Source: Candidatus Omnitrophota bacterium
GTDB lineage: Bacteria > Omnitrophota > Gorgyraeia > 1-14-0-20-64-10
NCBI GenBank assembly: GCA_016201735.1
Contig: JACQCH010000057.1
Span: 18-64,017 of the forward strand
DNA length: 64,000 nt
Direction: 5' to 3'
In this document: piece after piece, positions 24,068 through 57,801 of the stretch
How the letters are laid out: each line of letters starts with the position of its first letter
Position numbering within the stretch: the first letter of the stretch is position 1
Notes under the pieces: generated by a model
What the model was told of the DNA's origin: nothing
Database searches by the model: none
Seen by the model: the letters and a program-made list of their open reading frames with translations, nothing else
Made by a program: the position numbers and the translations under genes

Positions 24068-24142
24068 CGTATTACCAAGTATACCTACCGCTTCTCTCAA
24101 ATTCAAGTATCGAAACAAGATATGTATTACCATTTACATTTG

Positions 24143-41200: not shown

Positions 41201-43190
41201 TAATGCCGCCGTTGCGGCCGGTGATTGTGACATTGCCGGTGGTGGTCAGGGAGCGGACCGTGATCGTCCCAGCCGTATTGAGAGTTCCCATGGTGAGGGT
41301 GATGTCCTGGTTCCCTGCGTTAAGGGTTGTGCCCACCGCCATTGTCATGTTTGCGGCGCCCGCCGTGCGATTCGCCGATTGCGCCGCAGAATCATTGGCG
41401 GTCAGTGAGATGGCGCCGTTATTGGTTGTGATGTTGTTGTTGATCAGAACCGACCGGCCGGCCTGGATGGTCAGCGTCTTCCCCGCCGAGATCATATTGA
41501 TCGGGTCGGTCACGGTGACATCCGTATTGGCCTGCAGAAGAATGTTGGCGGCAGCGGCGGCGATGGACGCCGGCGTGATGACGTTGGTGCCGGCCGGGTT
41601 ATTGCCAAACAGGTTGTTGACCCCGCTGTTGTAAGCAGATCCCCCCGCCGTTCGGACCATCAGGAATTTTGGATCCAGCAGCAGGGTGCCGACCGCGCCC
41701 TGGGGAGCGAGGAGGTTAACGTTGCCGTTGAAATCCAGCTCCTCCTTGCCCGACACCTCAGCGAATCCGCCGTCGCCGGAGAAGAGCCCCCCTTGAGCCG
41801 TGATGGAGCCGTAAAACCGATTGGCGTCATCCGCCCAGACGATCACCCGGCCGCCGTTGCCTTGATTCAGGGAATCCGCCCGGATTGCAGCATCCGGACT
41901 CGCATAAGTCCTCCAAGCGTTGGGCACCGTCCCTTTCCCCTGGAAATCACCGCCCATCAAGACCGTGCCTCCGCCGACATCTCCGGATACATCAACGAGC
42001 GCGTTCTCCAAAAGTCCAACCTTCTGTGCTAAGAGATGGATCGTCCCGCCCTTTCCCCCGGCGAAGCGGCCCGTCGCCTCTGTCTGGCTGTGCCCGGCGA
42101 GGAGAGTTTCATCGACGCCGACGATCTCAATCTGTCCGGCCTGTCCGCCAGGACCTGCGTTGGCGGTCACCGTTCCCATCTGGACGATTCGTGTTCCCTT
42201 CAGAGAAATCTGGCCGGCATCCGGAGAATTTGATGTGCCGTCCGCGTGAATCATCCCCCCCTGCTCAAGAGTTCCCCCTTCCCCGACGAATGCGATCCGC
42301 CCCCCTTGATTCTCCAATCGGCTGGCCTCCACCAACCCGCTGTTATTGACCACCCGGTCAAAGAGATTCTCCAACGACTCCGCCTTAATCAACACATTCC
42401 CACCAGGAGCGGAAATCGTTCCGGCTTGCTGGACCGCCGCGGAGACCGGACGGCCTTCCAGGTCCATGACAATCTGGGAAAGAGGTTTGTCGACCGTCAC
42501 GGCGATCTGCTCGGTCGGATCCAAGGTGAGCGTCATCTGCTCCCCGGAGCCCAAGGCGACGGTTCCCTGCTGCGCCACCAGCAATCCCTTGTTCACCACC
42601 GCGCCTCCCAAGAGGGCGATCAGGCCGCCGGGTCCAACGGCCTCGATGCTTCCTCTATTAACCAGTTCCGCGGGGAAGAACCCATCCGGCTGGCTGAAGC
42701 GGTAGGACCCCTGGGCAAAATCAAGATTGGAGATATCCAGGGTGGAGGCCACAAAGGTAGGGGCTTGAATCCTCGCCGTGTCGGCAATCTGTATCCCGCT
42801 GGGGTTGACATGGAAGAAGGGGACGTTCGAAGTTAAAGTGCCGGCGATGTCCGAAGGATCCCCGCCGGTGACGCGGGTCAGGACCCGGGAAGTATCGGTC
42901 GGCTGATGGAGATGGAAGACGATCGTTTCTTGGGGTGCCAGATTAAACTGGTTGTATTGGAGAATCGCCTGATCCGACTCGATGTGAACATGCTCTCTCT
43001 GTGGGTCGACTTGTTCGGAGGAAGCGGTCCCCTCTTCAACGGTGAAGCCGGTAGGCAAAGCAAGGACACCCACCGGAAGGATCAACCCTTGCACAAGGGC
43101 TAAGAATCCCACCAGAAATTTCAGCGCCGCCGCGCGTAGTTCATGGCGACGCAGCGCGTTGAGCCAACCCCAGCGGCTCACGCGTTGCAA
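38223..43190 (-). CDS. Two-partner-secretion exoprotein TpsA (filamentous haemagglutinin-like, 1655 aa)
   Basis: Extended signal peptide; N-terminal TPS domain (...VLTRVTGGDPSDIAGTL...FHVNPSGIQIAD...); long beta-helical repeat region; poly-Pro then a hydrophobic/basic tail FLDFLSQYLSFVFSPENRRRARTLAS. Confidence 0.85.
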   Translation of the reverse strand: MQRVSRWGWLNALRRHELRAAALKFLVGFLALVQGLILPVGVLALPTGFTVEEGTASSEQVDPQREHVHIESDQAILQYNQFNLAPQETIVFHLHQPTDTSRVLTRVTGGDPSDIAGTLTSNVPFFHVNPSGIQIADTARIQAPTFVASTLDISNLDFAQGSYRFSQPDGFFPAELVNRGSIEAVGPGGLIALLGGAVVNKGLLVAQQGTVALGSGEQMTLTLDPTEQIAVTVDKPLSQIVMDLEGRPVSAAVQQAGTISAPGGNVLIKAESLENLFDRVVNNSGLVEASRLENQGGRIAFVGEGGTLEQGGMIHADGTSNSPDAGQISLKGTRIVQMGTVTANAGPGGQAGQIEIVGVDETLLAGHSQTEATGRFAGGKGGTIHLLAQKVGLLENALVDVSGDVGGGTVLMGGDFQGKGTVPNAWRTYASPDAAIRADSLNQGNGGRVIVWADDANRFYGSITAQGGLFSGDGGFAEVSGKEELDFNGNVNLLAPQGAVGTLLLDPKFLMVRTAGGSAYNSGVNNLFGNNPAGTNVITPASIAAAAANILLQANTDVTVTDPINMISAGKTLTIQAGRSVLINNNITTNNGAISLTANDSAAQSANRTAGAANMTMAVGTTLNAGNQDITLTMGTLNTAGTITVRSLTTTGNVTITGRNGGITQPSGTISANTLTAKTLINGGAAITLNSATNDATTVDLRSRDTADSANAAGAIAYRDANGFDAAAANTTGTVTLTAGGVITQSGAITGSTLTVKTLNNSGAAVTLDNASNDFTTVNLSTRNAADNANVGGALVYRDTNGFRVSGVRTTGTVTLTGGGAITQIGAMTGTTLTAKTLNNAGSAITLNNAGNDFTTVDLRARNGADTSNAAGALSYRDANGFDAAAANTTGTVTLTGGGAITQSGAMAGSTLAVKTLNNSGAAVTLDNASNDFTTVNLSARNAADSANAAGALTYRDANGFAVGQVRTTSTVSLTSGGAITDGNGAAANVTGSTLTLSAVTGINLDTVVSDVIAAVSGTGGIALREADAITLTDLSTTDGSIAVAAGTDIAAASIVVNGTGKSATLQAGRHITVSGPITTAGGGLYLEADSPHSTSGAADGTGTLTVDSAVASNGGEVTLMGANFALNADVDAGSGAIHLARSQHASLTIGSTGLLIQSEMDRLQTTGTLTLGEALTRGTNGSGAGALTRRASSITVQGASDVTIGAASGSGVELFANNGITLNRSLTTNQMAVIDTDRNFGDNSGTLTVANGRTLSTSNNPLTLTVNNFDLAASGSITSGTAALILNDSDGTGIGLGGTAVTNGVNVSGAELQRITSNGLTLQTAGNVIVNGITAANSGNVGTVTLSATGAAKTVSFATGDSTFKGLVANGADGITVDRNLTVTTGGFTANADSNTDGVGTFTVAAARTINALGQPAQITADDIALNGFINSGSGSVTLLPSTGVTVGLGAGAGHFNLTDGELDQVTTTGVLTIGNSTAGAMAVDGLTQGSKNLTLVPGGDITVGTVSTTGAVVLTAGGSILDGNGSALNLTAGGNSSLTAGGVIGLLADPFDVLVTGASLGVSAASEVSGVSVDISGTVTPSGTLSLLNSPPGQVIFNGAVIYSPPPPPPAPLPTAGPLVVTSNTGVFLDFLSQYLSFVFSPENRRRARTLAS
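40090..41160 (-). repeat. Intragenic tandem repeats (~237 bp / ~79 aa, 4-5 copies) within tpsA
   Basis: Repeated peptide TLxxKTLNNSGAAVTLDNASNDFTTVNLSxRNAADxANAAGALxYRDANGF...TTGTVTLTGGGAITQ; plus-strand shadow ORFs start with ~237-nt periodicity (40330, 40591, 40828, 41059). Confidence 0.65.
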
Positions 43191-43389: not shown

Positions 43390-45195
43390 TTAAAACCCAA
43401 CGCGGCAAATCAGGTGCAGGCGAGGGCGGTCCTTCTCCTGGTCCCGATCCCCGATCGCCCAGCCAAAATCCATCTGAAGGAAACTCTCAGAGGTCGGCCG
43501 AAGTCGAAACCCACATCCCACCCCGCTTAATCTCATGTCCGCGTCCTCGTTGCTCTGTGGAGAGCGAAGGAACCCCTCCGCGAAATCCCAGAACCCGACC
43601 AGAAGGAGGGAGCGCCGCAGATGGTTGAACGTGGAGCGGGCGTTCGCGGGCCCCGGGACAAACCGTTCCAGCGGCGCCCGAAGCTCCACGGTAGTCTGAA
43701 CCCCGTAATCGGCGAGGAACTCTCCCTCGGGATAGCCCCGGACCGTGTCGAACCCACCCAGCCGGAACTGTTCCGCGGGAACCAGCCGATTGGTGGTCAA
43801 CTGAAAGGCCCCCCGAAGAATCAGAGAAGTTCCCCAGGGTGCCTGTTGGACCCGAACCCCATTTCCGTTCCAACGAAAGAAGGATCCCCCTGCGTTGGCC
43901 CGGCTGGCGGCTGGATCTTCCGCGTGAGATCCCCCTAACAGACTTCCTATCCCCCACCGGAGCTCCTGGGTAAGAAGGGACTGTCCCTTTCTATCCTGTT
44001 CCAGAAGATTGGTTCCTAGATAGAGGACTCGAAGGTCATCCTTGGAGGTAATCCGGTCATCCAGCCGGGTCCGGATTCGTTTCCAGTCGAACCCGGTATT
44101 TACCTCCAGCTCCATCCCGGTATGGTAGACCCAGGGGATAATCAGGCCTGGGCTCACCGTCAATGCGTCTCCTCGGGCAAGGAGACCTTTCAAATCTCCT
44201 CCGATCGAAGATTTCACCCCGCTCACATCCAAGGTGGCCGTTAGACCCGATGGCTGAAGCGGCCGCAGGTAACTGAACGTCCCTCCCTTCAACCCTCCGA
44301 ATTCGCTCACGATCCCTCGAACAGACACCTGATCCTCACGACCGGTCAGATTGCCGTGCGAGAGTAGAATACTCTGGCGAATCTGTCCGGTCACCTTGGT
44401 TCCTAATGTATCGATGCTGTAGCTGGCGTGGAAGGGCCGATGGTCGGTGACTTGCAGAACCAGGTCGGTGGTCCCGGGTTGAGTCCCGGGGGTAAGGACC
44501 AGCTTCGCCTTCCGGTCCGGGTGGGCGTTGATCCGGTTCAACTGCTTCTGGAGGCGCGGCAGCCAGAGGATTTCCCCCGGCTGAACCTTCATCTGTCTGG
44601 CCAGAAGCTCCGTCGAGAAGAACCGGTTCCCCACCACCTGCAGACGGCCCACCTTCCCTTCGATGACCCGAACCCGAATCAGACCTTCCTCGACGGTCTG
44701 AGCGGGAATGACCGCCCGGGAGGTCACGTAGCCCCTTCCCCGGTACCAGCGGGTGATCCCCTCGGCCGCCGCTTTCAGTTCCTCCAGCGTGACGGTCCGG
44801 TTGATGATGGGACCCACCAATTTCCTCAATTCCTCATCGGGCAGGAGAGTGGCTCCCTCGACCGCCACACGGCGGACAGTGACCTCGGGGACTTGAAGGG
44901 TCGGGGCGGACGTCGGTTCCTCCGGAGGAACTTCAACAGGAGCGGGAACAGGAGCGGGTGCTTCTAACTTTTTGGGACGGCGCAGCCGTTCTTCCTCCGA
45001 GCCGACTTCCGTCTGCCGGGTGGAATCATCGGCAGATGCAGCCCTGATCCAGCCAAACCCTAGAGAGAGCCCCAGCAGACAAACCGAAACTGACGTCTTG
45101 AGAGTGCCCGTTAAGTTCACCGGACGGTGAGGACCTTGGTCGTTTTCCCGTCGGAAAGAACCACCTGCTTCTTTCGAATCTCCATCACCTGCCAC
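43390..45195 (-). CDS. TpsB outer-membrane transporter (ShlB/FhaC/HecB family, Omp85 superfamily)
   Basis: Signal peptide; POTRA region (VRRVAVEGATLLPDEELRKLV...RVIEGKVGRLQVVGNRFF); 16-strand barrel ending ...ICRVGF. Confidence 0.85.
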   Translation of the reverse strand: MAGDGDSKEAGGSFRRENDQGPHRPVNLTGTLKTSVSVCLLGLSLGFGWIRAASADDSTRQTEVGSEEERLRRPKKLEAPAPVPAPVEVPPEEPTSAPTLQVPEVTVRRVAVEGATLLPDEELRKLVGPIINRTVTLEELKAAAEGITRWYRGRGYVTSRAVIPAQTVEEGLIRVRVIEGKVGRLQVVGNRFFSTELLARQMKVQPGEILWLPRLQKQLNRINAHPDRKAKLVLTPGTQPGTTDLVLQVTDHRPFHASYSIDTLGTKVTGQIRQSILLSHGNLTGREDQVSVRGIVSEFGGLKGGTFSYLRPLQPSGLTATLDVSGVKSSIGGDLKGLLARGDALTVSPGLIIPWVYHTGMELEVNTGFDWKRIRTRLDDRITSKDDLRVLYLGTNLLEQDRKGQSLLTQELRWGIGSLLGGSHAEDPAASRANAGGSFFRWNGNGVRVQQAPWGTSLILRGAFQLTTNRLVPAEQFRLGGFDTVRGYPEGEFLADYGVQTTVELRAPLERFVPGPANARSTFNHLRRSLLLVGFWDFAEGFLRSPQSNEDADMRLSGVGCGFRLRPTSESFLQMDFGWAIGDRDQEKDRPRLHLICRVGF

Positions 45196-45551
45196 TGATC
45201 CAAGGTGTCTCCCACGGCGACCAGCCGGTTATTCACGACGGCCGACGGAATTCTTGAATCCCAAAGAATTCCGCTTAACACCCAGCCGTCGGAGCCCTCT
45301 TGCGCCTGCCCGGAGAGACGGCGGTCGATCTGGAAAGGGCTGTCCCCCCATTCCGTGGAACGGGGCCGCGCAGCCCCCTCGATCATTTTCCCTCTCCCCT
45401 GAGAGGAGAGGGTGGGAACCAGAGGGGCCGGCGCCGTTGGATTCGCCGGCCCCCTGGATCGGGCCGGCTTTACGGTCAGTCCCCGCGCCCAGAGGAGCAC
45501 TCCCAAAACAACCAGGGCCGCTGCCGCCAAACGCTGTTTCTTAGGATCCAC
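45117..45551 (-). CDS. pilP: PilP-like pilus assembly protein
   Basis: N-terminal TM, Pro-rich linker, C-terminal beta domain VNNRLVAVGDTLDQWQVMEIRKKQVVL; follows pilO. Confidence 0.5.
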   Translation of the reverse strand: MDPKKQRLAAAALVVLGVLLWARGLTVKPARSRGPANPTAPAPLVPTLSSQGRGKMIEGAARPRSTEWGDSPFQIDRRLSGQAQEGSDGWVLSGILWDSRIPSAVVNNRLVAVGDTLDQWQVMEIRKKQVVLSDGKTTKVLTVR

Positions 45552-46095
45552 TCTCCGCCTCGCTCAAGAAAATCTCCAACGACAGCCGCCCCCTCAAGTG
45601 AGGCAGGAGCCGCTCCTCCCGGTCAATCGATAACTGCCGCACAAAGGTTCCACTCAAAGAGGGTGTTCGAGCCAGTGCCCCCAGGAATTCTCCCCAAGAC
45701 CGATACACTCCTTCCAGAGTAAGCTCCACCGGTAGGATAACCAACCCCGGAGGATCGCCAGCGCGCGCGGCTCCGGGGGAAACTTGAATAAATTGGATTT
45801 GCTTCGACCGGGCCACGGTGTTGAGCTGTTTCAATACCGTCGAGATCGCGTCCGCGCGGGGCAATAAAGGAACCTCTCCCCGACGAATCGGGTCGACCGT
45901 CTTTCGGACATCGATTAATTCGGTTTTCAGGCGGAGCCATTCCGCATGGGACCGCCGGATCGACTGGAAGGCCGGCGCGTAAACGGCCCAGATCAGGACC
46001 AGGCCCCCGATGAACACTCCGGCCAGAACGAACCGGGGTTGGCGGAAAAGCCACACCCGGGTCTGGCGGATCGATTCGGTCACATCAGGGAACAT
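45541..46095 (-). CDS. pilO: PilO-like pilus assembly protein
   Basis: Single TM, coiled coil, C-terminal domain LTLEGVYRSWGEFLGAL; its position after pilN. Confidence 0.6.
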   Translation of the reverse strand: MFPDVTESIRQTRVWLFRQPRFVLAGVFIGGLVLIWAVYAPAFQSIRRSHAEWLRLKTELIDVRKTVDPIRRGEVPLLPRADAISTVLKQLNTVARSKQIQFIQVSPGAARAGDPPGLVILPVELTLEGVYRSWGEFLGALARTPSLSGTFVRQLSIDREERLLPHLRGRLSLEIFLSEAESGS

Positions 46096-47657
46096 CGAAT
46101 CTCAAACTCCGATTCTTTCGCCGGGCCTTCCAATTGTCTGGAGGAAATCAGCCGCACCTGGGTGAAAAATCTCTCTTCTTCCAGGGCCCGCAGAAAATCG
46201 GCCAGCACCTGATCCGAAGGCCGGCCTTGCTCCCGCACTTGGCCTCGAAGAGTGACTTCGTTCCCACTCAAGGTAAGCCCCGTGAGATAAATCTCCCTCG
46301 GAAGAACGTGGGTTAATTCCTTGAACAGATCTTCCCAGCGCGGTTGGCTGCGCTGCTTCTCTTGAGTAACAAAAGCGATCCTCGCCTGGACAAGCTCCGA
46401 TGCGACCGCCGCCCGTTCCAACGAAAAAGCAGTGATCTGCGTCCGAAGGGTTCTCTCATAAACCCCCATCCCGATCCGAATGAGCAGTGCTCCCACCACG
46501 GTGGCCGTTAGGACTCCGGTCAAGGCCGCCCGTTGGATCCGCATCTGATGGGCTTGCTTTATTTCCGCCGGCAACAGGTTGATCCCGAGGCCTTCGGTGA
46601 GAGCGGCTCCGAGGACCGGGACGAAGCTCAAGGGGGTCGCGCTGGCAGGTCCCTGGAGGGCCGCAGGCGTCTGCTGGAACCCCTCCAGGGGATCTGGTAC
46701 CTGTACCTGGATTTTAAGGTGTTCCTGCAGCCGATCGGACAAGCCCTTCAGGTGAGCTCCTCCTCCGACGAGAATCAACTCTGAGACCGCGGGCCCACCG
46801 GTTGACTCCCCATAGAAGACAAGGGAACGCTCCACCTCGGCGGTCAGCCGCTCAAGATTCCCTCGGAGAAGCGCGCAGAGCTGCGTCCCGGAAATTCCCT
46901 TCGCCCCCGTTTCGGAAAGAGGATCCTGAGGAATTCCCAGGGACCGTTTGATTGTCTCCGCTTCGGACTCGGTGAGGCGCGTCTGGCCTTGTTCCGTCAT
47001 CAAAGTGCCGGTCATCCCTTTGGTAAAATCGACCCCGGAGACCGGAACCTTCCGGGTAAACAGGGGTTGTCCTCCTTCAACCACAATGAACTCCGAGGAA
47101 CTCCCTCCCAAATACAGCAGGCCGACCGGTCCATCCTTCCGGGGAGATTTTTGTTGAACCCAACGAGCAACGGCAACCGCTTTCAGAAACAACTGCGTCG
47201 GCCGGACCCCCGCCTCCGAAAGGAGATTCAGATGTTTTTGGATCGCCGCTTTCGGAAGGGCCGCCGCCAAAAGTTTCTGCTTCTTGACCCCTGAAACCTC
47301 CACCTCCCCCGAAGGTTGATAATCCACCATGGCTTCCTCAGGAGGAACCGCTAAATGCTGCTGGAGCTCCGATCGGACCGCTCCGAGGAGTTCTCCTGCC
47401 GGCATAGGAGGGACCAGCACATGGCACAGACAGGCGAATGGATCATCCACGACGCTGACCACCTGCGCGAACTCCGCCGGGAAGATTCCCTGAAGCAGCT
47501 GTTTCAAGGCCGCCTGCCGGGCCGCTTCATCGCACCCCGGCGGAAGCTCCAGAAATCTCATCTGGGTCACCAGTGGTCTGGATTCTCTCCATTCCAAGAG
47601 GACCAGCTTGAAGGTACAGCTCCCCAGATCCAGCCCCAGAACCGGCTTACCTTTCAT
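46080..47657 (-). CDS. pilMN: PilM-PilN fusion (actin-like ATPase fused to inner-membrane PilN)
   Basis: N-terminus LGLDLGSCTFKLVLLE (PilM/FtsA-like); residues ~350-525 carry the INLLPAEIKQ PilN signature plus a TM. Confidence 0.8.
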   Translation of the reverse strand: MKGKPVLGLDLGSCTFKLVLLEWRESRPLVTQMRFLELPPGCDEAARQAALKQLLQGIFPAEFAQVVSVVDDPFACLCHVLVPPMPAGELLGAVRSELQQHLAVPPEEAMVDYQPSGEVEVSGVKKQKLLAAALPKAAIQKHLNLLSEAGVRPTQLFLKAVAVARWVQQKSPRKDGPVGLLYLGGSSSEFIVVEGGQPLFTRKVPVSGVDFTKGMTGTLMTEQGQTRLTESEAETIKRSLGIPQDPLSETGAKGISGTQLCALLRGNLERLTAEVERSLVFYGESTGGPAVSELILVGGGAHLKGLSDRLQEHLKIQVQVPDPLEGFQQTPAALQGPASATPLSFVPVLGAALTEGLGINLLPAEIKQAHQMRIQRAALTGVLTATVVGALLIRIGMGVYERTLRTQITAFSLERAAVASELVQARIAFVTQEKQRSQPRWEDLFKELTHVLPREIYLTGLTLSGNEVTLRGQVREQGRPSDQVLADFLRALEEERFFTQVRLISSRQLEGPAKESEFEIRCSLM

Positions 47658-47660
47658 CCG

Positions 47661-48518
47661 TCACTGCTCCACCCAGTCCGGCTCATAGTAGGCCACCTGG
47701 TTCTGGGGGGCAGCGTCGTCCGTCACGACCGTCTGCACCACCGTCCGGGTCAACGTGTTCCCGCCAGTCACCACCGTCCCGGTAGAGCTGATCTTGCGCC
47801 CGATGACCTCCAAGGTCGAGACCCGGACGTGGCCGCCGCCGCCGGACCGGGTCACCCGGAGCCGAAGATAGTTCACATTCGACTGCGCGGAGAAGGTATC
47901 CGTCACGTCGGTGGCCCCGTTGCCGACGACCGACAGGACGGTCGTGTAGCTGCTGTTGTCCGCGGAGACCTGCCAGGAATAATCCCGGGGCCGGGTGGCT
48001 GCGGTGTTCGCTATAAAATGGACCTTGTTGACCGTCAGGGTATAAGGAAACGTGATCGTGATGAATTGCGGAGTCCCGTTGCCCGAGCCGGCGCCGGCGC
48101 CTGGATTGAATTGGGACTCCCAAAAAGTGACATTGTTGCCGTCAATCGCCCTGGAGGGGACGTTCACTCCGTTGGATGAATTCGCGGAGGCGGTCGAGCC
48201 GTTGGCCGCCAGCGCGAAATCCCAGAACGTCACCGCCATCGTGTAGGTATTGTTCACGTCGGGCAGATTTTCCGTCAGGGTCACCGTACCGGAAGCCGGC
48301 CAGTTTTCTCCGCGGCCACCGGAAGCCACCGGGGTCATCAAATACCAGATCGCCTTCTGCAGGCCGGCCTCCGCCAACCATAAAACCTTCGCGTCGGTTT
48401 CCTCCCAGCCGCTGTTCTTGATGAAGACGCCGATGGCGTAGAGGAAAGACCCGATGAGAGTGACGAGGAGGATCATCACCGCCAGCGTCATGATAAGAAG
48501 AGATCCCCTATTCTTCAT
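47661..48518 (-). CDS. PilX_N-type pseudopilin fused to an F5/8 type C (discoidin) carbohydrate-binding domain
   Basis: N-terminus MKNRGSLLIMTLAVMILLVTLIGSFLYA (PilX_N-like); AIDGNNVTFWESQ...YSWQV is the discoidin hallmark. Confidence 0.55.
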   Translation of the reverse strand: MKNRGSLLIMTLAVMILLVTLIGSFLYAIGVFIKNSGWEETDAKVLWLAEAGLQKAIWYLMTPVASGGRGENWPASGTVTLTENLPDVNNTYTMAVTFWDFALAANGSTASANSSNGVNVPSRAIDGNNVTFWESQFNPGAGAGSGNGTPQFITITFPYTLTVNKVHFIANTAATRPRDYSWQVSADNSSYTTVLSVVGNGATDVTDTFSAQSNVNYLRLRVTRSGGGGHVRVSTLEVIGRKISSTGTVVTGGNTLTRTVVQTVVTDDAAPQNQVAYYEPDWVEQ

Positions 48519-49054
48519 AAGTTGCGTCTCTTGACCCGTTCGATCAGGCGGAAGGTTTCATCCCCCCGGATCAAGGTGAGATCCAGCGTCGCCACCGAGC
48601 CGCTGACCGACAAGGCGGAGGCCGCCGGCGGCTGGACATCTCGCATCAGCAGATCGCCGCTTCCGTAGGTGAAGGTGCCGCCGATCCCCCCGGTGAGGGC
48701 GGCCTTCCTGAGTTGATAACTCGACTGCGTGTAGGTGTTGTCCCATGCGGCGTCGCTGGCGTTGTAAAAGTAAAGGATGTAGCTGTTATTGATGCCGCTC
48801 TCCCGGACCGTGAACCGGATCGCCGCGGTCACTGTGGCGTCGTTCTGCATCGCCCCGGCCAGCCGGAGATCCCGGATCCCTCTCTCCAATCCGAGCTGGA
48901 TCTGCCGCTGGAGATTCATCCGATCCTGGTGGCTCGACCAGGCCAGGAGAATTGGATTGAGTGACATTGCCGCCGCCGACAGGAGGACCGCGAAAAGAAG
49001 GAGGACGATGACCACCTCGATCAGCGTCCACCCCTGGAAAGGTCGTATCCTCAT
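48515..49054 (-). CDS. Prepilin-type minor pilin/pseudopilin
   Basis: Prepilin leader plus G|WTLIEVVIVLLLFAVLL (class III signal). Confidence 0.65.
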   Translation of the reverse strand: MRIRPFQGWTLIEVVIVLLLFAVLLSAAAMSLNPILLAWSSHQDRMNLQRQIQLGLERGIRDLRLAGAMQNDATVTAAIRFTVRESGINNSYILYFYNASDAAWDNTYTQSSYQLRKAALTGGIGGTFTYGSGDLLMRDVQPPAASALSVSGSVATLDLTLIRGDETFRLIERVKRRNL

Positions 49055-49770
49055 TAAAACTGGACGTTCAGTTTTGTCCCCAGGATCTGATTGCTGCTCC
49101 GGTCGTGCCGGGCGCCGAGCAGACTTTGATTCATATAATAGAGGTCCACACTGGAACGAACTCCTTTGACTTCCTTCATCGGAATCACCACCCCCAGGAA
49201 GGCCCGGTTTTGGTTCCAGGCCTTGCGGGTATAATCGTAGAAGGCGTCGTTGGCGATATAGGGAGTCACCTTGTGGCCGAAGATTTCCATCGAATAAGCA
49301 ATCTTAGGCATCAACCGGATCTGAAATTCCTGTTCGCCGGAACTGCCCTGAACCGTCTTGAGCGCGACACGGCCTCTCATGGAAAAATCCCAGGGACCCC
49401 ATTTTGTTTTGGGGGTGATGTCCAATTCCCCGGTGTGTTCATCCCGATTCTTGCCGGAGGAGTTTTCGCTGCGAGCAAAGAGGTAATTCAGGCCGAACTC
49501 AAGGTGATTCGACGGCTTCCAACGGAGTCCCTGCCGGTATTCGTGATAGAAAAGGTGGCTGGCCCCGTCCTCCATCCGGATCTCGGGCCGGAAAAACAGA
49601 TCCCACTTTGGATTCAACCGCTTGACGAGCTCCAAGGTGTTCCAATATTGAAAGTCATCTTTCCCCTGAGCCGGGAGCGCAGCCAGCAAGATAACACCGA
49701 TCATTAAGCCACTAAGCCAAATGGACCGGATTTTAGAGCCCCTTTCAATTATTATTGACGTTGGCCACAT
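49054..49770 (-). CDS. Putative outer-membrane beta-barrel protein (DUF2490-like) embedded in the pilin cluster
   Basis: Signal peptide; alternating amphipathic beta-strand pattern; C-terminal ...KLNVQF aromatic terminus; not a secretin. Confidence 0.45.
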   Translation of the reverse strand: MWPTSIIIERGSKIRSIWLSGLMIGVILLAALPAQGKDDFQYWNTLELVKRLNPKWDLFFRPEIRMEDGASHLFYHEYRQGLRWKPSNHLEFGLNYLFARSENSSGKNRDEHTGELDITPKTKWGPWDFSMRGRVALKTVQGSSGEQEFQIRLMPKIAYSMEIFGHKVTPYIANDAFYDYTRKAWNQNRAFLGVVIPMKEVKGVRSSVDLYYMNQSLLGARHDRSSNQILGTKLNVQF

Positions 49771-50125
49771 AACTGGTCAGAGAGGTGGAAAGCTCCGCCG
49801 CACCCGGCGTCCAGTAGACGGTCACCACGACCTGTTTGAAGTTGGCGTTGGTTCCGGCCGGTTGAGTGATATCGACCTGGCGGGAGAAACCGGTCCAGCT
49901 GGAGACAGCCGCTTTTGCCTCGTTGGCGATGGAAGCGAAGGCCGTCCCTCGGAGGTTCTCCATCCTCTCCTGGGCGAGAGCGACGGCCTGCTCGAGGGTT
50001 TCGGTGTCGGCGGCGGCGAACATACCGCGGCTCATGGCAAAGGTGGCGGCGGCAACCCCTCCCACCAGCAGAAGGATGGCAATCATCAATTCAATGAGGG
50101 TAAACCCACCCCGCCGTGAGCTCAT
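49745..50125 (-). CDS. Prepilin-type pilin-like protein
   Basis: GGFTLIELMIAILLLVGG class III signal; 126 aa. Confidence 0.65.
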   Translation of the reverse strand: MSSRRGGFTLIELMIAILLLVGGVAAATFAMSRGMFAAADTETLEQAVALAQERMENLRGTAFASIANEAKAAVSSWTGFSRQVDITQPAGTNANFKQVVVTVYWTPGAAELSTSLTSYVANVNNN

Positions 50126-50157
50126 ACCCCTATATTATACGCCACGCCCCTGTCGTT

Positions 50158-51807
50158 TTACGCGGCAACCTTCTTCTGCTCTTTCAAAACTTTGGCGGTG
50201 AATCTTGGCAGGGTAAAGGTGAAGATGGTCCCCACTCCTGGGGCGCTTTCCACCCGGATTGTTCCCTGCTGCAGCTCAATCAGTTCCTTGGCGATCGCCA
50301 AGCCTAAGCCGGTGCCTTTGGCTGCTTTATCCGAGGTGCGGCTAAACTGCTCAAATTTTTGGAACACCTTGGGAAGATTCTCAGCCGCGATTCCAATACC
50401 GGTATCCGAAACGGCGCACTCGATGAAATCTTCCTTGGCCTGAGCGGAGATCTCAATGGAACCCTTCTCCGTAAACCTCAAGGCATCGTCCACCAGATTG
50501 GTCAGGACTTGGATGACCTTATCGCTGTCGGCGTAAGCCTCCATCTGCTCCGAGGGAAAACCCATCTTTAACTCCAGGCCTTTCTGTTCCACCTCGGGCT
50601 GGAAGGTTGCAGCCACCTGACGGACGAGATCCTTCAGATCCACCCGTTCCATCCGGAGAGTCACCTTGCCCGCTTCCAACTTGGAGATGTCCAGAAGATC
50701 GCTGATGATCCGGCTTAAGCGGTCGATGTTTTTCCCGCTGATATCGAGAAGTTTATCCTGCTGTTCATTGAGCTCTCCCACCGCCCGATCGAACAAGAGT
50801 CCCACTCCTTCTTTGATGATGGACAGGGGGGTGCGCAGCTCATGGCTGACGGTGGCCACGAACTTATCCTTGAGGGCGGAGAGTTCCTGATACCGCTTAT
50901 TCGCCACCCGAAGCGCCTCTTCCACCTGCTTGCGGTGGATGATTTCCCGTTGAAGCCCCCGGTTGGTCGTTTCCAGCTGCGCGGTTCTCTCTTTGACCCG
51001 CCGTTCCAAATCTTCACTGAACCGCTGGGACTTCTCCTTTTCCCTTCGGAGCGCATTGGGGATCTCATCGAAGGAGCGGGCAAGCCGGCTTAATTCATGT
51101 GGGCTGCCCGCCATCCCGGTCCGGACGCTGAAGTCTCCTCTGCGGATCCGATCCACCGCATCCTCAAGAAGATTCACCGGACGAATCACCAAGAAGTGGC
51201 CGATGAACCAGGCCTCCAGAAGCGCCAGGAGGCCGATGAACACAAACCCCCAAACGGATCGGGGGAAAAACGGATTGAACTTAGAAAAAACCCTCTCCTT
51301 GGGAATGCTCACCGCCACGGTGAGATCCCTCTCCGGCTTCTTTTCCAACGGGGAAAAAGCCGCCAGGCACGGGACGCCGTCCAGACCCGCAACCTCCGCA
51401 GTTCCTTCCCTCGAAGCCAGGAGGACCCGAATCAGCGGGGCTTGGCGCATCGATCTTCCCACCCACTTCTTGGACTCGGGGTAATGAAACAAGATCGTCC
51501 CCTCCCGATCGATCACCGCGAACCGCCCCCCTTTGGGCAGTTGGGCTAAGATCGTCTGGAGCAGCGACTCAGAGCTTACAAGTGGTGCGGCCTCCTCTGG
51601 CCGCAGCCAGGACTCATTCTCGATGAGCCGCCTCTGCTGGGAAGCCGCCATCCGGGTGAACCGCAGCAGGTTTTCCTTCGCTTCAGAGACAGCGACCCGT
51701 CCCTGCTCCGAGCCGTTGTAAAGCAGGATCCCCAGCGCCGGGACCACGGCCATCAGCACGAGAAACAATAAGCGGAAACGAATGGATGAAAAATGAACTC
51801 CGTCCAT
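50158..51807 (-). CDS. Sensor histidine kinase (periplasmic sensor-HAMP-HisKA-HATPase)
   Basis: Two TM segments flanking a periplasmic domain; H-box VATVSHELRTPLSII; N/G1/G2 boxes (DTGIGI, GTGLGLAI). Confidence 0.85.
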   Translation of the reverse strand: MDGVHFSSIRFRLLFLVLMAVVPALGILLYNGSEQGRVAVSEAKENLLRFTRMAASQQRRLIENESWLRPEEAAPLVSSESLLQTILAQLPKGGRFAVIDREGTILFHYPESKKWVGRSMRQAPLIRVLLASREGTAEVAGLDGVPCLAAFSPLEKKPERDLTVAVSIPKERVFSKFNPFFPRSVWGFVFIGLLALLEAWFIGHFLVIRPVNLLEDAVDRIRRGDFSVRTGMAGSPHELSRLARSFDEIPNALRREKEKSQRFSEDLERRVKERTAQLETTNRGLQREIIHRKQVEEALRVANKRYQELSALKDKFVATVSHELRTPLSIIKEGVGLLFDRAVGELNEQQDKLLDISGKNIDRLSRIISDLLDISKLEAGKVTLRMERVDLKDLVRQVAATFQPEVEQKGLELKMGFPSEQMEAYADSDKVIQVLTNLVDDALRFTEKGSIEISAQAKEDFIECAVSDTGIGIAAENLPKVFQKFEQFSRTSDKAAKGTGLGLAIAKELIELQQGTIRVESAPGVGTIFTFTLPRFTAKVLKEQKKVAA

Positions 51808-51830
51808 TGGGATATCCCTTTTATCTCAGA

Positions 51831-52286
51831 TTAGAATCCGCCGGAGCCGCTGGTCCCATTGGAGACATAGATGTCGTCGCCCGCCGCGCCGGTGAGAGCC
51901 CCAGTATTATCAATGCCGGTAATGCCTGCCGTGTTGTCGATCGACACCGACCAGATGATGTAGTATAAGCCATTGGCGGACTTCCCGTACTGGTACTGGG
52001 CGCTGGAAGTCGAGAAGGCGTCGATGAGGGCCGTGCCGATCATTTTCGGCGAGGCGCCCGTTAAGGCCGACTCCCAGGTAGCTCCTGTGGCCGGGTAGGC
52101 CTTGCTGTGGTGGATGTAGTACGATTCCACGGCCGCCTGCAGAGCTCCACACTCTGCCGCCGCCTTAGCGACGTTCCCTTCATCGATCATGCCTCGCAAC
52201 CTCGGCAGGGCAATCCCCAGTAAAATGGCAATCACTGCGATGACGATGACTAACTCAATTAAGGTGAAACCTTTTTCTTTTTTCAT
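51831..52286 (-). CDS. Major pilin / GspG-like pseudopilin
   Basis: KGFTLIELVIVIAVIAILLGIALP; AAAECGALQAAVESYYIHHSKAYP resembles the GspG alpha-beta loop. Confidence 0.75.
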   Translation of the reverse strand: MKKEKGFTLIELVIVIAVIAILLGIALPRLRGMIDEGNVAKAAAECGALQAAVESYYIHHSKAYPATGATWESALTGASPKMIGTALIDAFSTSSAQYQYGKSANGLYYIIWSVSIDNTAGITGIDNTGALTGAAGDDIYVSNGTSGSGGF

Positions 52287-53509
52287 CGAATCCCTCCATG
52301 TTGAAGAACCTTCACCATATCGAACATAGGAAACAATAATGAAGCCATGATAAACGCGACGACACCGCCCATCACGATGAGAAGAATCGGTTCTAAAAGA
52401 GTCATCATCTGCTTCAAGCTGTAATTCACCCGCAGTTCATAGTAGTCGGCAATCTTTTCCAGCATGGTGTCCAGCCGGCCCGACTCCTCTCCTACCTGAA
52501 TCATCTGGATCACGTCCGGATAGAAGACCTTCCCCACAGAAAGGGTGGCCGCCATCCGTTCTCCCTGCTCCACAGCGGTCTTTACCCGTTTCAATTCCTG
52601 AAAGATCACCTGATTGTCCACCACCCCGCCGGCCGTCTCCAGGGCGCCGACAATGGGGACACTGCTCTCCACCAAGGTGGCCAAGGTCCGGGCGAACCGG
52701 GCCACCACCGTCTGATGAAGCGCCAAACCCAGAACAGGAATCTTTAGAAGAAACCGGTCGATTCTGAAACGCAACGTGGGGATCCGGGCCGCGGCCCCCA
52801 AACCGACCATCGCTCCGACGGCGGCCGGGAGGATGACCCACCCGTGGGACCGGAGAGCGCTCCCAATAACCAGCAGGATCTGTGTCGGCAGTGGAAGAGG
52901 GATCCCCGCCTTAGCGAAAAGACTGGCGAACTGCGGCACCACAAAGGCAACGAGGAACAGGATCAGCAGAGTCGCCGCACCCAACAGCACGGCCGGATAA
53001 AGGAGCGCCCCCTTGACCGCCCGGGTCAATGCCAGGTCCCTCTCGATAAAGTTCGCGAAACGGGTCAGGATGGTATCCAGCTGGCCGCTGGCCTCCCCCA
53101 CCGCCGCGAGATTCACCATCAGTTTCGGGAAGACGGCGGGGTAGTGACTTAACGCTTGAGAGAAGGGCTCCCCTCCTTCAACCTCCCGGGAAAGCCCTTC
53201 GAACGCCTCCCGGAGGAGTCGGTCTGTCGTCTGGGATCCGACGGCTTGAAGAGACGCAATCAAAGCAACCCCTGCCCCCACTAGGTTGGACAATTGGATC
53301 GAAGCCAGAAGCAGTGCCTCCTGCGAGACACTCCCTCCCAGCCGGACGGTCAAGATTCCCCGGAACCCGGCCGCCATCTCCTCCATCCGGGTAACCAGGT
53401 ATCCCATCTTCCGCAGGCGATCGACGAGAGACTCCTTCGAGTCCGCCTCCAGAACCCCTTTCACGAGGCGACCCTGTTCATCCCGAGCTTGATAAGCAAA
53501 GGCCGGCAT
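52283..53509 (-). CDS. pilC: Pilus/T2SS inner-membrane platform protein (PilC/GspF family)
   Basis: Two GspF repeats, 3 TM; ATG immediately preceded by GGAGGGGCGGGGTG from element E2. Confidence 0.85.
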   Translation of the reverse strand: MPAFAYQARDEQGRLVKGVLEADSKESLVDRLRKMGYLVTRMEEMAAGFRGILTVRLGGSVSQEALLLASIQLSNLVGAGVALIASLQAVGSQTTDRLLREAFEGLSREVEGGEPFSQALSHYPAVFPKLMVNLAAVGEASGQLDTILTRFANFIERDLALTRAVKGALLYPAVLLGAATLLILFLVAFVVPQFASLFAKAGIPLPLPTQILLVIGSALRSHGWVILPAAVGAMVGLGAAARIPTLRFRIDRFLLKIPVLGLALHQTVVARFARTLATLVESSVPIVGALETAGGVVDNQVIFQELKRVKTAVEQGERMAATLSVGKVFYPDVIQMIQVGEESGRLDTMLEKIADYYELRVNYSLKQMMTLLEPILLIVMGGVVAFIMASLLFPMFDMVKVLQHGGIR

Positions 53510-53690
53510 CACCCCGCCCCTCCGGAGTCATGAAGCGGCCGCGGCCGCTTCACTGTGCCGAAGGCACAGATGCCCTCGGCTGTCTCTCGCTTTAATCGAT
53601 CACCCCATTCAAAAAACATCTGTTGCGCCTCCTTGAACCTTAAAGAATCCATCCTCTCTGCCGAGGGCATACTCCGGAGGGGCGGGGTCA
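53510..53690 (-). repeat. Structured repeat element copy E2 in the pilB-pilC intergenic region
   Basis: Terminal inverted repeats TGACCCCGCCCCTCCGGAGT (just after pilB TGA) and ACTCCGGAGGGGCGGGGTG (SD + GTGATG of pilC). Internal hairpins: an 11-bp stem ATGCCCTCGGC/GCCGAGGGCAT, CUGUGCC-UUCG-GGCACAG, and the GAAGCGGCCGCGGCCGCTTC palindrome. Confidence 0.6.
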
Positions 53691-53692
53691 AT

Positions 53693-55381
53693 TCAAATCT
53701 CCTGTGTGACGCGCAGCACCTCATCCAGGGTCGTCACCCCGGCGGCCGCCTTGGCGAGACCATCCTCCCGAAGGGCCCGCATCCCCTTCCCCACCGCATG
53801 AGATTTAAGCTGTCCTGAAGAGCTCTTTCCAATCGTCAGGCGGTTCATCTCCTCATCCATCACCATCAATTCAAAGATCCCGATCCGTCCTCGGTACCCG
53901 GCCTGACTGCACTTCCGGCACCCTTTCCCTTTCATCCAATGGCCGGCCGCCCCAATGCCAAGACGCTTCCCCGCCTCCTCTTGGGTCGGGTCCGCCACCT
54001 TGCAGTCAGGACAAACGGTCCGGACCAGACGCTGAGCGGCCACCCCGATCAGGCTTGAGGCGACGAGAAATGGTTCGATCCCCATATCGAGCAGGCGCGT
54101 GACGGCGGTGGCGGCGTCGTTGGTGTGCAGGGTGGAAAAAACCAGGTGCCCCGTCAGGGCCGCCTGAATGGCGATCTCCGCCGTCTCCCGGTCCCGGATC
54201 TCTCCCACCATGATGACATTCGGATCCTGCCGCAGGATGGACCGAAGTCCCGTCGCGAAGGTCAGCCCCACCCCCGGATTGACCGGAATCTGCCGCACCC
54301 CATGCAGACGGTACTCGACCGGATCTTCAATGGTCACGATGTTCTGCTCCGTGGCGTTCAGGGTAGCCATGGAAGCATACAGGGTGGTTGTCTTTCCCGA
54401 GCCGGTCGGGCCGGTGACAAGAACAATCCCCCAGCTCCGTTTTAAAAGATCCTGATACCGGGAGAGAAGTTCCGGATCCATCCCCAGCTCCGCCAATCCG
54501 ATCTGAAGACCCTTGGTGTCCAGGAGCCTCAGCACCACCGTTTCCCCGTCGATCGCCGGCATCACCGAAACCCGCAGATCCACCTCATGCCCTTCCATGG
54601 CGACTCTGAAACGGCCGTCTTGGGGTTTCCGCCGCTCCGCGATGTCCAGGCCGGCCAGGATCTTGACGCGGGAGACGATCGCCGACTCCAAATGTTTGGG
54701 CAGAACCGTCGCTTCCCGCAAGATGCCATCCACCCGGAATCGAACCCGAAAAATATCCCTTTCCGGCTCCAGGTGAATGTCCGAGGCCCGGGCCCGAATC
54801 GCGTCGCTCAAGAGGAGATTCACCAGGCGGACGACCGGCGGTTCCGAGACCAATCCCTGAAGATGTTTGAGTTCCAGGGACTGGCCGGCCTTAAGCCCCA
54901 GCCTTTCCTGACTCAGATCGGCAACCAGATCGTCGAGGCGCCCCTTGGCCCCGTAATATTCCTCCAGGGCCTGCAGGATCTCATGCTCCGTCGCCACGAC
55001 CGGTTCCACCGTCAAGCCGGTGCGCAGGCGCAGCTCATCCATCGCGATCAGATTCAACGGATCGGCCGTGGCCACTGTTAAGGTTTGTCCCAATTTGAAC
55101 AAGGGAATCAGCTGATGCTTCCTCGCCAGCGCTTCCGGGACAACATCCAGGACCTGCGGGTCAATCAGATAGCTTGCCAGTTCGACCCGGGGGACCCCCA
55201 GGAGACGACTCAGCCAGTGCGCCATGGTCGGCGGATCGAGAAACTTCAGGCGGATCAGGGTTTGCCGGATCGTCTGTCCCGTACGGACCGCTTCCCCCTG
55301 GGCCTGATGCATCTGTTCAGCGGTAATCAAGCCCTCTTCCACCAGCTTCTCTTCGGGCCGCTTCACTGCTTCTGTTTTCAC
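53693..55381 (-). CDS. pilB: Pilus/T2SS assembly ATPase (PilB/GspE family)
   Basis: N-terminal GspE_N domain; Walker A GPTGSGKTT; Asp box; tetracysteine CPDCK...CRKC; GTG start inside a GAGGCGGGGTGA junction. Confidence 0.9.
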   Translation of the reverse strand: MKTEAVKRPEEKLVEEGLITAEQMHQAQGEAVRTGQTIRQTLIRLKFLDPPTMAHWLSRLLGVPRVELASYLIDPQVLDVVPEALARKHQLIPLFKLGQTLTVATADPLNLIAMDELRLRTGLTVEPVVATEHEILQALEEYYGAKGRLDDLVADLSQERLGLKAGQSLELKHLQGLVSEPPVVRLVNLLLSDAIRARASDIHLEPERDIFRVRFRVDGILREATVLPKHLESAIVSRVKILAGLDIAERRKPQDGRFRVAMEGHEVDLRVSVMPAIDGETVVLRLLDTKGLQIGLAELGMDPELLSRYQDLLKRSWGIVLVTGPTGSGKTTTLYASMATLNATEQNIVTIEDPVEYRLHGVRQIPVNPGVGLTFATGLRSILRQDPNVIMVGEIRDRETAEIAIQAALTGHLVFSTLHTNDAATAVTRLLDMGIEPFLVASSLIGVAAQRLVRTVCPDCKVADPTQEEAGKRLGIGAAGHWMKGKGCRKCSQAGYRGRIGIFELMVMDEEMNRLTIGKSSSGQLKSHAVGKGMRALREDGLAKAAAGVTTLDEVLRVTQEI

Positions 55382-55773
55382 CCCGCCTCTCCCTCATCCA
55401 TCGGCTCACCCAACGCCGTGCGGACCTTCTGAATCAGCTCCGCCGCCCGATAGGGCTTGCCTAGGATCGCGTAACTTTCTGTGAGATCCAAACTCTTTTG
55501 GGTCACGGAAATATCCTGCGATAAAGCGGTCAGGAAAATCACCGGGATCCGCTGTGTGATGGGATCTTCCCTTAAAGTGTGATAGGTCTCCACCCCGTCC
55601 TGATTCGGCATCAGGATGTCCAGCAGAATCAGATCCGGTTTTTCCTCCCGAGCCACGGCAATTCCCGAGGGGCCGTCCGGGGCTTCCAGGATTTCAAACC
55701 CGTTGGCGGCCAGCCGCGAGTTCAAGAGAGCTCTCACGTCCGGTTCGTCATCCACAATCAGTATTTTTTTCAC
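55378..55773 (-). CDS. Stand-alone response-regulator receiver
   Basis: ILIVDDEPD...LILLDILMP...; GTG start inside a partial copy of the repeat element. Confidence 0.8.
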   Translation of the reverse strand: MKKILIVDDEPDVRALLNSRLAANGFEILEAPDGPSGIAVAREEKPDLILLDILMPNQDGVETYHTLREDPITQRIPVIFLTALSQDISVTQKSLDLTESYAILGKPYRAAELIQKVRTALGEPMDEGEAG

Positions 55774-57437: not shown

Positions 57438-57801
57438 GCAGGTTGTGAACCTGATCCATCAGAACGTCCAATTGCAATGGTTTGACCAGACACCCATCGG
57501 CGCCGCATTCGACCGCCTGCGTCAAATCCCCGGCGTCCCCCCGGGCCGTAATCACCAAGATCGGGATTCCCCGGTACCGCTCATCGGACTTGAGCAGTTT
57601 TAAAACATGGTACCCATCCAGTCCCGGAAGCATCAGGTCCAGAAGGATCAGATGAGGAATCTCTTTTCGGGCCAACTCCAAGGCATTGTTTCCATCCTGA
57701 GCCGTCAGGACCTGGTAGCCCTGCAGTTCCAGCCCCTCCTTCAGGCAATCGATCATCCCCTGTTCATCGTCCACCAGCAGTACCTTCTGAGGTTCCATCA
57801 A
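57403..57801 (-). CDS. Stand-alone response-regulator receiver
   Basis: VLLVDDEQG...LILLDLMLPGLDG...LVITAR. Confidence 0.8.
   Translation of the reverse strand: MMEPQKVLLVDDEQGMIDCLKEGLELQGYQVLTAQDGNNALELARKEIPHLILLDLMLPGLDGYHVLKLLKSDERYRGIPILVITARGDAGDLTQAVECGADGCLVKPLQLDVLMDQVHNLLGNGRGDARSV

Follow-up and report, generated by a model that had tools for sequence, protein, structure and literature searches.

In a 64,000-nucleotide stretch of Candidatus Omnitrophota bacterium (GenBank assembly GCA_016201735.1, contig JACQCH010000057.1, positions 18 to 64,017 of the forward strand; hereafter the window), a gene cluster resembling those of type IV pili and of the type II secretion system (T2SS) ends at a pilP-like gene. 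This gene is followed, in the position of the secretin gene pilQ, by tpsB and tpsA, a two-partner secretion (TPS) pair. An earlier note on this DNA had offered two explanations: either the secretin is encoded elsewhere and the adjacency is coincidental, or a pilus without a secretin is physically, and perhaps transcriptionally, coupled to the export of a giant adhesin. Our analysis partly supports that interpretation, with the first branch fitting the comparative data best. We consider it fairly probable that the pilus operon and the TPS pair are two ordinary, separable modules lying end to end, and that TpsB is no substitute for PilQ. The independence of the modules is indicated by relatives that have one without the other, by an insertion of dinB between them, by a lineage in which the TPS pair is split, and by tpsBA pairs at unrelated loci. 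Because the modules come and go independently, TpsB is unlikely to replace PilQ.

For the comparison, loci (labelled L001, L002 and so on) were collected on the TpsB side by exact-protein look-ups and on the pilus side by a metagenome scan with the PilM-PilN fusion protein (PilMN), and were annotated by BLAST against the window proteins. TpsB and PilMN of the window are each 100% identical to NCBI proteins of a 'Candidatus Omnitrophica bacterium' metagenome-assembled genome. The PilMN fusion has ~40 homologues at 45-67% identity, followed by a gap down to 27%. This gap delimits one discrete clade, which is a family-level clade of Omnitrophota. A PilMN scan of genome contigs found one Omnitrophota genome and two unrelated phyla. 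The order pilB-pilC-pilin-(histidine kinase)-pilin-pilin-discoidin-pilMN-pilO-'pilP' is kept in all loci that are sufficiently long.

What follows pilP is variable. Sequence beyond pilP was available for nine lineages, with the window (identical to L001) counted once. In four of the nine, tpsB-tpsA come after pilP: directly in the window, L024 and L029, and in L002/L003/L011 with dinB, a Y-family polymerase gene, in between. In L016 only tpsA follows pilP; the tpsB of this lineage (41% identical) is found at the other end of the cluster, ahead of the first response regulator gene. The arrangement in L016 (3-1655 and 12567-16565) looks as though the entire 10.5-kb pil cluster lay between tpsB and tpsA. 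The remaining four lineages (L017, L021, L023 and L028) have no TPS gene after pilP, and tblastn found no tpsBA remnants in them. A convergent gene for a class II ribonucleotide reductase is a conserved downstream neighbour in the window, L002, L017, L021 and L023, so that the interval from pilP to the ribonucleotide reductase gene, where the TPS pair sits, is a variable one.

The TPS side gives a matching picture. The earlier note had named a pilQ elsewhere in the genome, together with tpsBA at unrelated loci in relatives, as the sign of coincidental adjacency. Of these two, tpsBA pairs at unrelated loci were found: after an exopolysaccharide cluster in L010 (TpsB 64% identical) and L009 (59%), after LemA/TPM genes in L006 (53%), and after a pseudouridine synthase gene and a gene for a 2741-amino-acid WD40 protein in L035 (67%). 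More distant Omnitrophota TpsB proteins (30-35%) also lie at unrelated loci, each with a TpsA. The synteny comparison that the note had proposed yielded pil clusters that end at pilP (L017, L021, L023, L028) as well as a locus with no pil cluster at all. In the latter, L034, TpsB is ~70% identical and dinB-tpsB are present, but all the pil genes are missing, and genes with HTH_17 and HATPase_c_4 domains stand after tpsB in the place of tpsA. The right flank of L034 is that of the window (aminotransferase, DUF3108-like protein, fatty-acid desaturase, a 413-amino-acid membrane protein at 74% identity, response regulator), and its response regulator runs directly into dinB-tpsB (locus 1-15996). 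This suggests that the pil cluster was lost by recombination between receiver-domain paralogues or through a mobile element.

Neighbour-joining trees are in line with these gene orders. In the PilMN tree, pil loci with and without tpsBA interleave, and in the TpsB tree the exopolysaccharide-linked proteins are nested within the pil-linked ones. Both patterns fit an early acquisition of tpsBA, followed by several losses and relocations.

In the window, the genes from the response regulators through tpsA form one string on the minus strand. Domain calls were made with Pfam and, for proteins of the pil cluster, also with NCBIfam; the Pfam scan of the 64 kb covered nearly all non-nested open reading frames (ORFs) of at least 120 amino acids plus some smaller ones. 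In the order of transcription, the genes are:

57803..58201, minus strand: receiver-only response regulator (Pfam Response_reg, E 1.5e-30), which heads the regulatory block
57403..57801, minus strand: second receiver-only response regulator (Pfam Response_reg, E 3.2e-27)
55770..57437, minus strand: GAF-domain histidine kinase (Pfam GAF, HisKA, HATPase_c)
55378..55773, minus strand: third receiver-only response regulator (Pfam Response_reg, E 2.4e-23), overlapping the start of pilB
53693..55381, minus strand: assembly ATPase PilB/GspE with an N-terminal MshEN domain of the cyclic di-GMP-binding type (Pfam T2SSE, E 4.6e-135; MshEN, E 4.1e-25)
52283..53512, minus strand: inner-membrane platform protein PilC/GspF (two Pfam T2SSF domains, E 7.1e-57)
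51831..52286, minus strand: probable major (pseudo)pilin, 151 amino acids (Pfam N_methyl, E 9.1e-10)
50158..51807, minus strand: HAMP histidine kinase between pilin genes (Pfam HAMP, HisKA, HATPase_c)
49745..50125, minus strand: minor pilin, 126 amino acids (Pfam N_methyl, E 4.6e-6; weak NCBIfam PilV/GspJ/GspH matches)
49054..49770, minus strand: DUF2490 protein (Pfam DUF2490, E 2.2e-25; gene call of 216 amino acids, 49054-49704)
48515..49054, minus strand: minor pilin-like protein, 179 amino acids (Pfam N_methyl, E 7e-5; weak GspH-type NCBIfam match), kept in relatives
47661..48518, minus strand: F5/8 type C (discoidin) protein with an N-terminal hydrophobic anchor (Pfam F5_F8_type_C, E 8.9e-12)
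46080..47657, minus strand: PilM-PilN fusion of GspL-like architecture, 525 amino acids (Pfam PilM_2, residues 86-346; PilN, residues 444-524)
45541..46095, minus strand: PilO/GspM-like protein, 184 amino acids (Pfam PilO, E 2.5e-5, above the gathering score)
45117..45551, minus strand: protein in the PilP/GspC position, 144 amino acids (N-terminal membrane anchor, linker, W-x-x-x-P-F motif and C-terminal beta domain of ~55 amino acids)
43390..45120, minus strand: TpsB, an Omp85 transporter of the FhaC/ShlB/CdiB type, 576 amino acids (Pfam POTRA_2 and ShlB)
38223..43190, minus strand: TpsA exoprotein, up to 1655 amino acids (Pfam TPS, E 1e-22; five DUF5649 domains), outside the coordinates 43390-55381 on which the study centred

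Gene order and domain content are largely as the earlier note had them, including the 1655-amino-acid TpsA after TpsB and the DUF2490 gene among the pilin genes. Its 'PilX_N-discoidin fusion' holds for the discoidin half only: the N-terminus is hydrophobic and has no Pfam match to PilX_N even at E<=10. An assembly chimera between pilP and tpsB is ruled out by the recurrence of the junction in independent assemblies (L001, L024, L029).

The core of a pilus assembly machine is present: the assembly ATPase (T2SSE and MshEN), the platform protein (two T2SSF domains), N_methyl domains in three proteins, and the PilM/PilN/PilO alignment subcomplex, with PilM_2, PilN and PilO matches all above the Pfam gathering scores. 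Among the scanned window ORFs there was no Peptidase_A24 match that would represent PilD, and no second T2SSE protein that would represent PilT. The NCBIfam scores place the machine between two families. The pilB product reaches 622 bits as PilB and 617 bits as GspE, each slightly under the cut-off; the pilC product reaches 344 bits as GspF and 324 bits as PilC; and the top match of the 151-amino-acid pilin is GspG, confined to its N-terminal region. This pilin is 67-78% identical across relatives.

BLAST with the window proteins showed that the first response regulator is kept at the cluster head in L011, L016, L017, L022, L028 and L029, and the second in L016, L017, L022 and L029. Orthologues of the GAF histidine kinase (58-60% identical) lie upstream of pilB in relatives. 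The HAMP histidine kinase is kept in place in most relatives but not in L016 and L028. The DUF2490 gene was seen in this genome alone (L001, the source of the 216-amino-acid gene call, is the same sequence). No DUF2490 homologue was found in the relatives' loci that span this stretch, where the flanking minor pilin genes are adjacent, and the gene thus appears to be a lineage-specific insertion among the pilin genes. The discoidin gene, in the position of a large minor pilin, is kept immediately upstream of pilMN in relatives, and its product is a candidate tip lectin. In all relatives pilO follows pilMN.

The junction itself is tight. Read from the sequence, the GTG start of tpsB overlaps the pilP stop by 4 nt (GTGA). 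The overlap claimed in the earlier note therefore exists, although it measures 4 nt; taking the longest ORF would have given ~79 nt, but in the database TpsB is called as a protein of 576 amino acids. With such an overlap, neither a terminator nor a promoter could fit between the two genes. Together with the short same-strand gaps between pilP and tpsB in L024 and L029, it argues for co-transcription, and for this genome it supports the transcriptional coupling that had been suspected. The upstream block of kinases and response regulators therefore probably governs the expression of pilus and adhesin together. An alternative is that the pair is a pure accident of neighbourhood, in which tpsBA has its own promoter, shares no regulation with the pil genes and merely abuts pilP here. 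The variable contexts of tpsBA would be compatible with this, and the AT-rich spacer of 199 nt between tpsB and tpsA could hold a promoter. A consensus promoter and terminator scan gave counts near the shuffled expectation; it was uninformative, which leaves room for this alternative, and was not used. Yet the stop/start overlap, the short same-strand gaps in L024 and L029, and the retention of the linkage across several genera all speak against an accident, which we regard as unlikely.

How the pilus would cross the outer membrane depends on the whereabouts of a secretin. As the earlier note had stated, none was detected in the 64 kb: no scanned ORF of the window matched Pfam Secretin. A jackhmmer profile built from three outgroup secretins, of which a Desulfurobacteriaceae metagenome-assembled genome supplied two and a Burkholderiales one the third, found zero matches among six-frame ORFs of at least 70 amino acids in the window and the Omnitrophota loci L001-L031. 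The three large unannotated window ORFs at 11612-13159, 22247-24133 and 58541-59782 were rejected as divergent secretins, judging by their sequence and the jackhmmer search. GspD was not found in the window, and the T2SS GspC-M set was not recovered at equivalog cut-offs. In roughly 15 relatives' loci there was likewise no secretin within ~10 kb of the pil cluster.

Searches outside these loci gave little more. A homology search with the secretin of the outgroup locus L032 returned 273 matches; none of the 120 matches listed was labelled Omnitrophota, these being records of unclassified 'bacterium', KSB1, Calditrichota and Deferribacteres. The supplements of PMC10066038 hold no pilQ or secretin entries, and a literature search for Omnitrophota with secretin or PilQ found nothing relevant. 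Secretins are reported in the phylum, as RcpA and as gspD near giant genes (PMC10066038; bioRxiv 10.1101/2023.11.21.568195), and type IVa pilus components are reported to be common in all Omnitrophota classes (PMC10066038; bioRxiv 10.1101/2023.11.21.568195; 10.64898/2026.06.07.730766).

The gene after pilO offers a clue to the ancestral arrangement. Its product has no family match above threshold, so the name pilP given to it earlier stands by other evidence: its position, its homology to the protein encoded just before the secretin in L032, and consistent sub-threshold matches to T2SSB and T2SSC. An alignment of 13 orthologues shows the N-terminal anchor, the W-x-x-x-P-F motif and a C-terminal domain of ~55 amino acids that is highly conserved. 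T2SSB was matched below threshold in 10 of the 13 (best E 2.6e-4) and T2SSC in four (best E 3.7e-4), and the L002 orthologue spans positions 5-140 of the 141-position GspC model (E 3.7e-4, sub-threshold). A profile of the family had no match among PDB sequences, and hhalign comparisons with E. coli GspC, E. coli GspB and an Aquificota protein in the PilP position were not significant. A single-sequence AlphaFold2 model had low confidence (predicted local distance difference test, pLDDT, 52); its top Foldseek matches, GspB (4WFW) and, from a complex with GspD, the HR domain of GspC (3OSS_C), were non-significant (E ~0.4-0.7). From sequence comparison, the gene is predicted to encode a PilP/GspC-type protein, with a C-terminal domain probably of the HR type that binds the secretin N0 domain.

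In L032, an unclassified bacterium whose secretin has KSB1 and Calditrichota records among its relatives, the order is PilMN, PilO, a protein of 162 amino acids and a secretin (PF00263). Its PilMN fusion is the closest one outside the clade (27% identity), and the 162-amino-acid protein is homologous to the PilP family of the window (hhalign 97.6%, E 4.5e-12). Together with the PilP-type identity of the window protein, this order indicates that the ancestral arrangement had a secretin after pilP. The clade thus appears to have lost or relocated its secretin gene, while the presumed secretin-docking domain was kept under strong conservation. This conservation, combined with the sub-threshold matches to GspB and GspC, suggests that PilP probably still uses a secretin partner.

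Alternatively, the secretin may have been lost from the whole clade, leaving either a periplasmic pseudopilus (for DNA uptake with ComEA/ComEC, or as a T2SS-like piston) or a pilus with a non-secretin outer-membrane conduit. Such a loss would agree with the lack of a secretin in the window and around the relatives' pil clusters, with the secretin in the nearest outgroup L032, and with pil genes that stay intact across 45-70% divergence, which implies that the system works without a secretin in cis. It would also agree with comEA (21835-22197) and comEC (20310-21851), which the earlier note had pointed out and which were found in the window, 21 kb from the pil cluster. However, absence from the operon is not absence from the genome. 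The retained N0-docking-type domain of the PilP/GspC-like protein argues against loss, and so does the discoidin-bearing minor pilin, which suggests a surface-exposed tip. Moreover, LptE, a BamD-like lipoprotein, Lnt and the Omp85-family TpsB, all encoded in the window, indicate a diderm host, and no type IV filament system characterised in a diderm is known to do without a secretin. The reports of secretins in other members of the phylum point the same way. We therefore see a clade-wide loss as distinctly unlikely. Still less do we expect its fullest form, in which a family-level diderm clade would run a PilB/C/MN/O/GspC-like machine without any genomic secretin, as a pseudopilus or through an unrecognised exit, with a TPS adhesin system repeatedly kept at its 3' end as its surface arm.

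TpsB, finally, has the features of a canonical transporter. Its POTRA region matches Pfam POTRA_2 (E 6.5e-23) and POTRA (E 6.6e-11), and its barrel matches ShlB (E 1.7e-16). The AlphaFold2 model, based on 41 homologues (pLDDT 84.7), comprises two POTRA domains, seen as two beta-alpha-alpha-beta-beta units at residues ~80-226 (pLDDT >90), and 16 long barrel strands between residues 230 and 575. Foldseek matched it to CdiB (6WIM, E 3.5e-32) and FhaC (4QL0/4QKY, E 1e-26 to 3e-25). The loop-6 motif (V/I)RG(Y/F) is present as 'DTVRGYPEGE'; among the 41 homologues R461 is invariant, and V460, G462 and Y463 are at least 90% conserved. The H1 region, between the signal peptide and POTRA1, was modelled as a short helix at residues 41-47 with pLDDT <50. 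TpsA carries its TPS domain at residues 56-314, and its translation contains 'FHVNPSGIQI' and 'ILQYNQFNL', which by eye are equivalent to NPNL/NPNG-type motifs, as well as long repeats rich in G, A and T residues. The two genes belong together: tpsA adjoins tpsB in L002, L004, L006-L010, L024, L029 and L035, and follows the tpsB homologue in all examined lineages except L034, which has none, and L016, where the genes flank the pil cluster. TpsB is accordingly predicted to be a 16-strand transporter of the FhaC/CdiB type that exports its own TpsA, a putative beta-helical adhesin resembling filamentous haemagglutinin.

A mechanistic form of the physical coupling that the earlier note proposed, with TpsB (or TpsB with TpsA) docking to PilP in the place of PilQ and linking pilus assembly to adhesin export, could draw on the pilQ position of tpsB, its 4-nt overlap with pilP and the association of TPS genes with the cluster in five of the nine lineages (counting the flanking genes of L016), but we judge it highly improbable, given a standard barrel with the loop-6 motif, a pore that in FhaC/CdiB-type proteins passes an unfolded polypeptide and not a pilus fibre ~6 nm wide, four lineages with pilP and the pil genes intact and no adjacent tpsBA, a dinB gene tolerated between pilP and tpsB, a tpsB kept without a pil cluster in L034, and close homologues of TpsB that are paired with a TpsA of their own at unrelated loci.

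Under the two-module explanation that we favour, the first module would be a type IV pilus/T2SS-like operon made up of the regulators, PilB, PilC, a major pilin, three minor pilin-like proteins of which one bears the discoidin domain, PilMN, PilO and the GspC/PilP-like anchor; its secretin gene, ancestrally after pilP, would no longer be part of the operon in this clade. In the second module, TpsB would export its own TpsA, an adhesin-like, beta-helical exoprotein of ~1650 amino acids. The TPS pair was probably acquired early in the clade, and several losses, relocations or interruptions probably followed; here the 4-nt overlap would join tpsB to the end of the pil transcript. The block of kinases and response regulators, together with the MshEN domain of the cyclic di-GMP type, would control the pilus, whose tip complex may carry the discoidin lectin. 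A single transcript running into tpsB, and probably into tpsA, would allow pili and a filamentous adhesin to be made jointly for attachment. For its passage across the outer membrane, the pilus most likely uses a putative secretin that is probably encoded elsewhere in the genome. An epibiotic or predatory lifestyle has been proposed for Omnitrophota, and a surface-attachment island of this kind would suit it.

Several points weigh against this explanation. Linkage between the TPS pair and the pil genes is seen in more lineages than expected for an arbitrary neighbour (five of nine, with L016), and a functional link between TPS and pil genes beyond common descent is conceivable. The TpsB homologues at unrelated loci may be paralogues in genomes that also have a pil-linked copy, and the neighbour-joining trees are simple ones without support values. 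As for the distal secretin, none was found for the window genome or any clade member within the ~10 kb on each side of the pil clusters, and the assignment of the HR domain to PilP draws on sub-threshold matches and a low-confidence model.

Compared with known type Vb systems (FhaC/FhaB of Bordetella, ShlB/ShlA of Serratia, CdiB/CdiA), the TPS pair has the same POTRA_2 and ShlB domains, two POTRA domains, 16 strands and VRGY motif, and the same adjacent TpsA, whose TPS domain is N-terminal and whose passenger is long and repetitive. It differs in its Omnitrophota host, in the translational overlap of tpsB with the last gene of a pilus operon, and in a passenger with DUF5649 repeats; no toxin or immunity module was recognised, and the H1 helix was not confidently modelled.

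The pilus module appears to sit between type IVa pili and the T2SS. With the pilMNOPQ operons of Pseudomonas, Myxococcus and Neisseria (pilMNOWQ in Thermus) it shares the PilM-N-O order, a small anchored protein in the PilP position, PilB, PilC and pilins. In contrast to those operons, which in well-studied diderms keep the secretin gene in place, PilM and PilN are fused here, pilB, pilC and the pilins belong to the same operon, no pilQ follows pilP, and pilD and pilT were not seen in the window. The PilP-like protein has a membrane anchor and no lipobox, and is more like GspC/GspB than PilP. The gsp operon of the T2SS is mirrored in the order E-F-G-minor pseudopilins-L-M, in the GspL architecture of PilMN and in PilO as the counterpart of GspM. 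In line with this, PilC scores slightly higher as GspF, the major pilin is closest to GspG, and PilP has its sub-threshold matches to T2SSC and T2SSB. However, GspD is missing here, the GspC-like gene comes last instead of first, family scores stay under equivalog cut-offs, and the lectin-bearing minor pilin suggests an exposed pilus, not a periplasmic piston.

A further parallel is the Amuc_1098-1102 cluster of Akkermansia muciniphila, which we take to include a secretin (Amuc_1098). PilMN matches NCBIfam NF045709, the Amuc_1101 family (E 8e-24), but its 84 bits against a cut-off of 650 mean that it is not a member; the NCBIfam pilM score is also under its cut-off. This match is a hint that phyla related to the Planctomycetes-Verrucomicrobia-Chlamydiae group may have PilMN fusions in common.

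Within Omnitrophota, giant genes (>20 kb) are preceded by T2SS- or Tad-like loci with gspD/rcpC-type components (West-Roberts et al., bioRxiv 10.1101/2023.11.21.568195; 10.64898/2026.06.07.730766), and large surface proteins often adjoin pilus or T2SS-like loci (PMC10066038; bioRxiv 10.1101/2023.11.21.568195; 10.64898/2026.06.07.730766). The window shares with these loci the theme of a large surface or adhesion protein beside machinery of the type IV filament family. It differs in that the machinery is of the PilMNO type without a secretin, and in that the large protein is encoded by a 5-kb tpsA with its own exporter, TpsB. No report of a coupling between TPS and type IV pili was found in the literature. 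If the two modules are indeed separable, their organisation would be ordinary: in a phylum thought to live on other cells, a pilus operon would make up a variable attachment island together with an adhesin export pair. It would also be a small added example of how Omnitrophota tend to encode large surface proteins next to machinery for pili or secretion. The one point of broader interest is that an entire clade appears to have removed the secretin from the operon, where its closest outside relative L032 keeps it. Should the genomes of the clade have no secretin at all, they would provide the first case of a diderm whose type IV filament system lacks one.

Some observations concern the surroundings of the cluster. 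The ribonucleotide reductase of the window (33501-37517, plus strand) is a class II (B12-dependent) enzyme of 1338 amino acids with an intein (Intein_splicing at ~400-783; the homing endonuclease domain LAGLIDADG_3 at 630-724), while its orthologues in relatives have 922-935 amino acids and no intein insert. A few kb past this gene, L017 (18340-19857, minus strand) and L023 (17424-18848, minus strand) encode a second, shorter PilB-like ATPase, 30-38% identical to the PilB core, with no counterpart in the window. The comEA-comEC region of the window (17552-22197, minus strand) comprises comEA, comEC (with Competence and DUF4131 domains only), the genes for the BamD-like tetratricopeptide-repeat lipoprotein and LptE, and holA; a gene for a PilZ-domain protein overlaps the 3' part of the comEC ORF. 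Two proteins of 515 and 628 amino acids without a Pfam match (11612-13159 and 22247-24133, both minus strand) have signal-peptide-like N-termini and repeated short 'AGMEE/VGMEK/SAGMEE' motifs; the gene for the larger one lies immediately upstream of comEA-comEC. Lastly, an ORF of 259 amino acids with a weak transposase-type helix-turn-helix match (26742-27521, minus strand) overlaps tRNA-Ala (26763-26836, plus strand) on the opposite strand; it may be spurious, or the remnant of an integration beside tRNA-Ala and tRNA-Leu.

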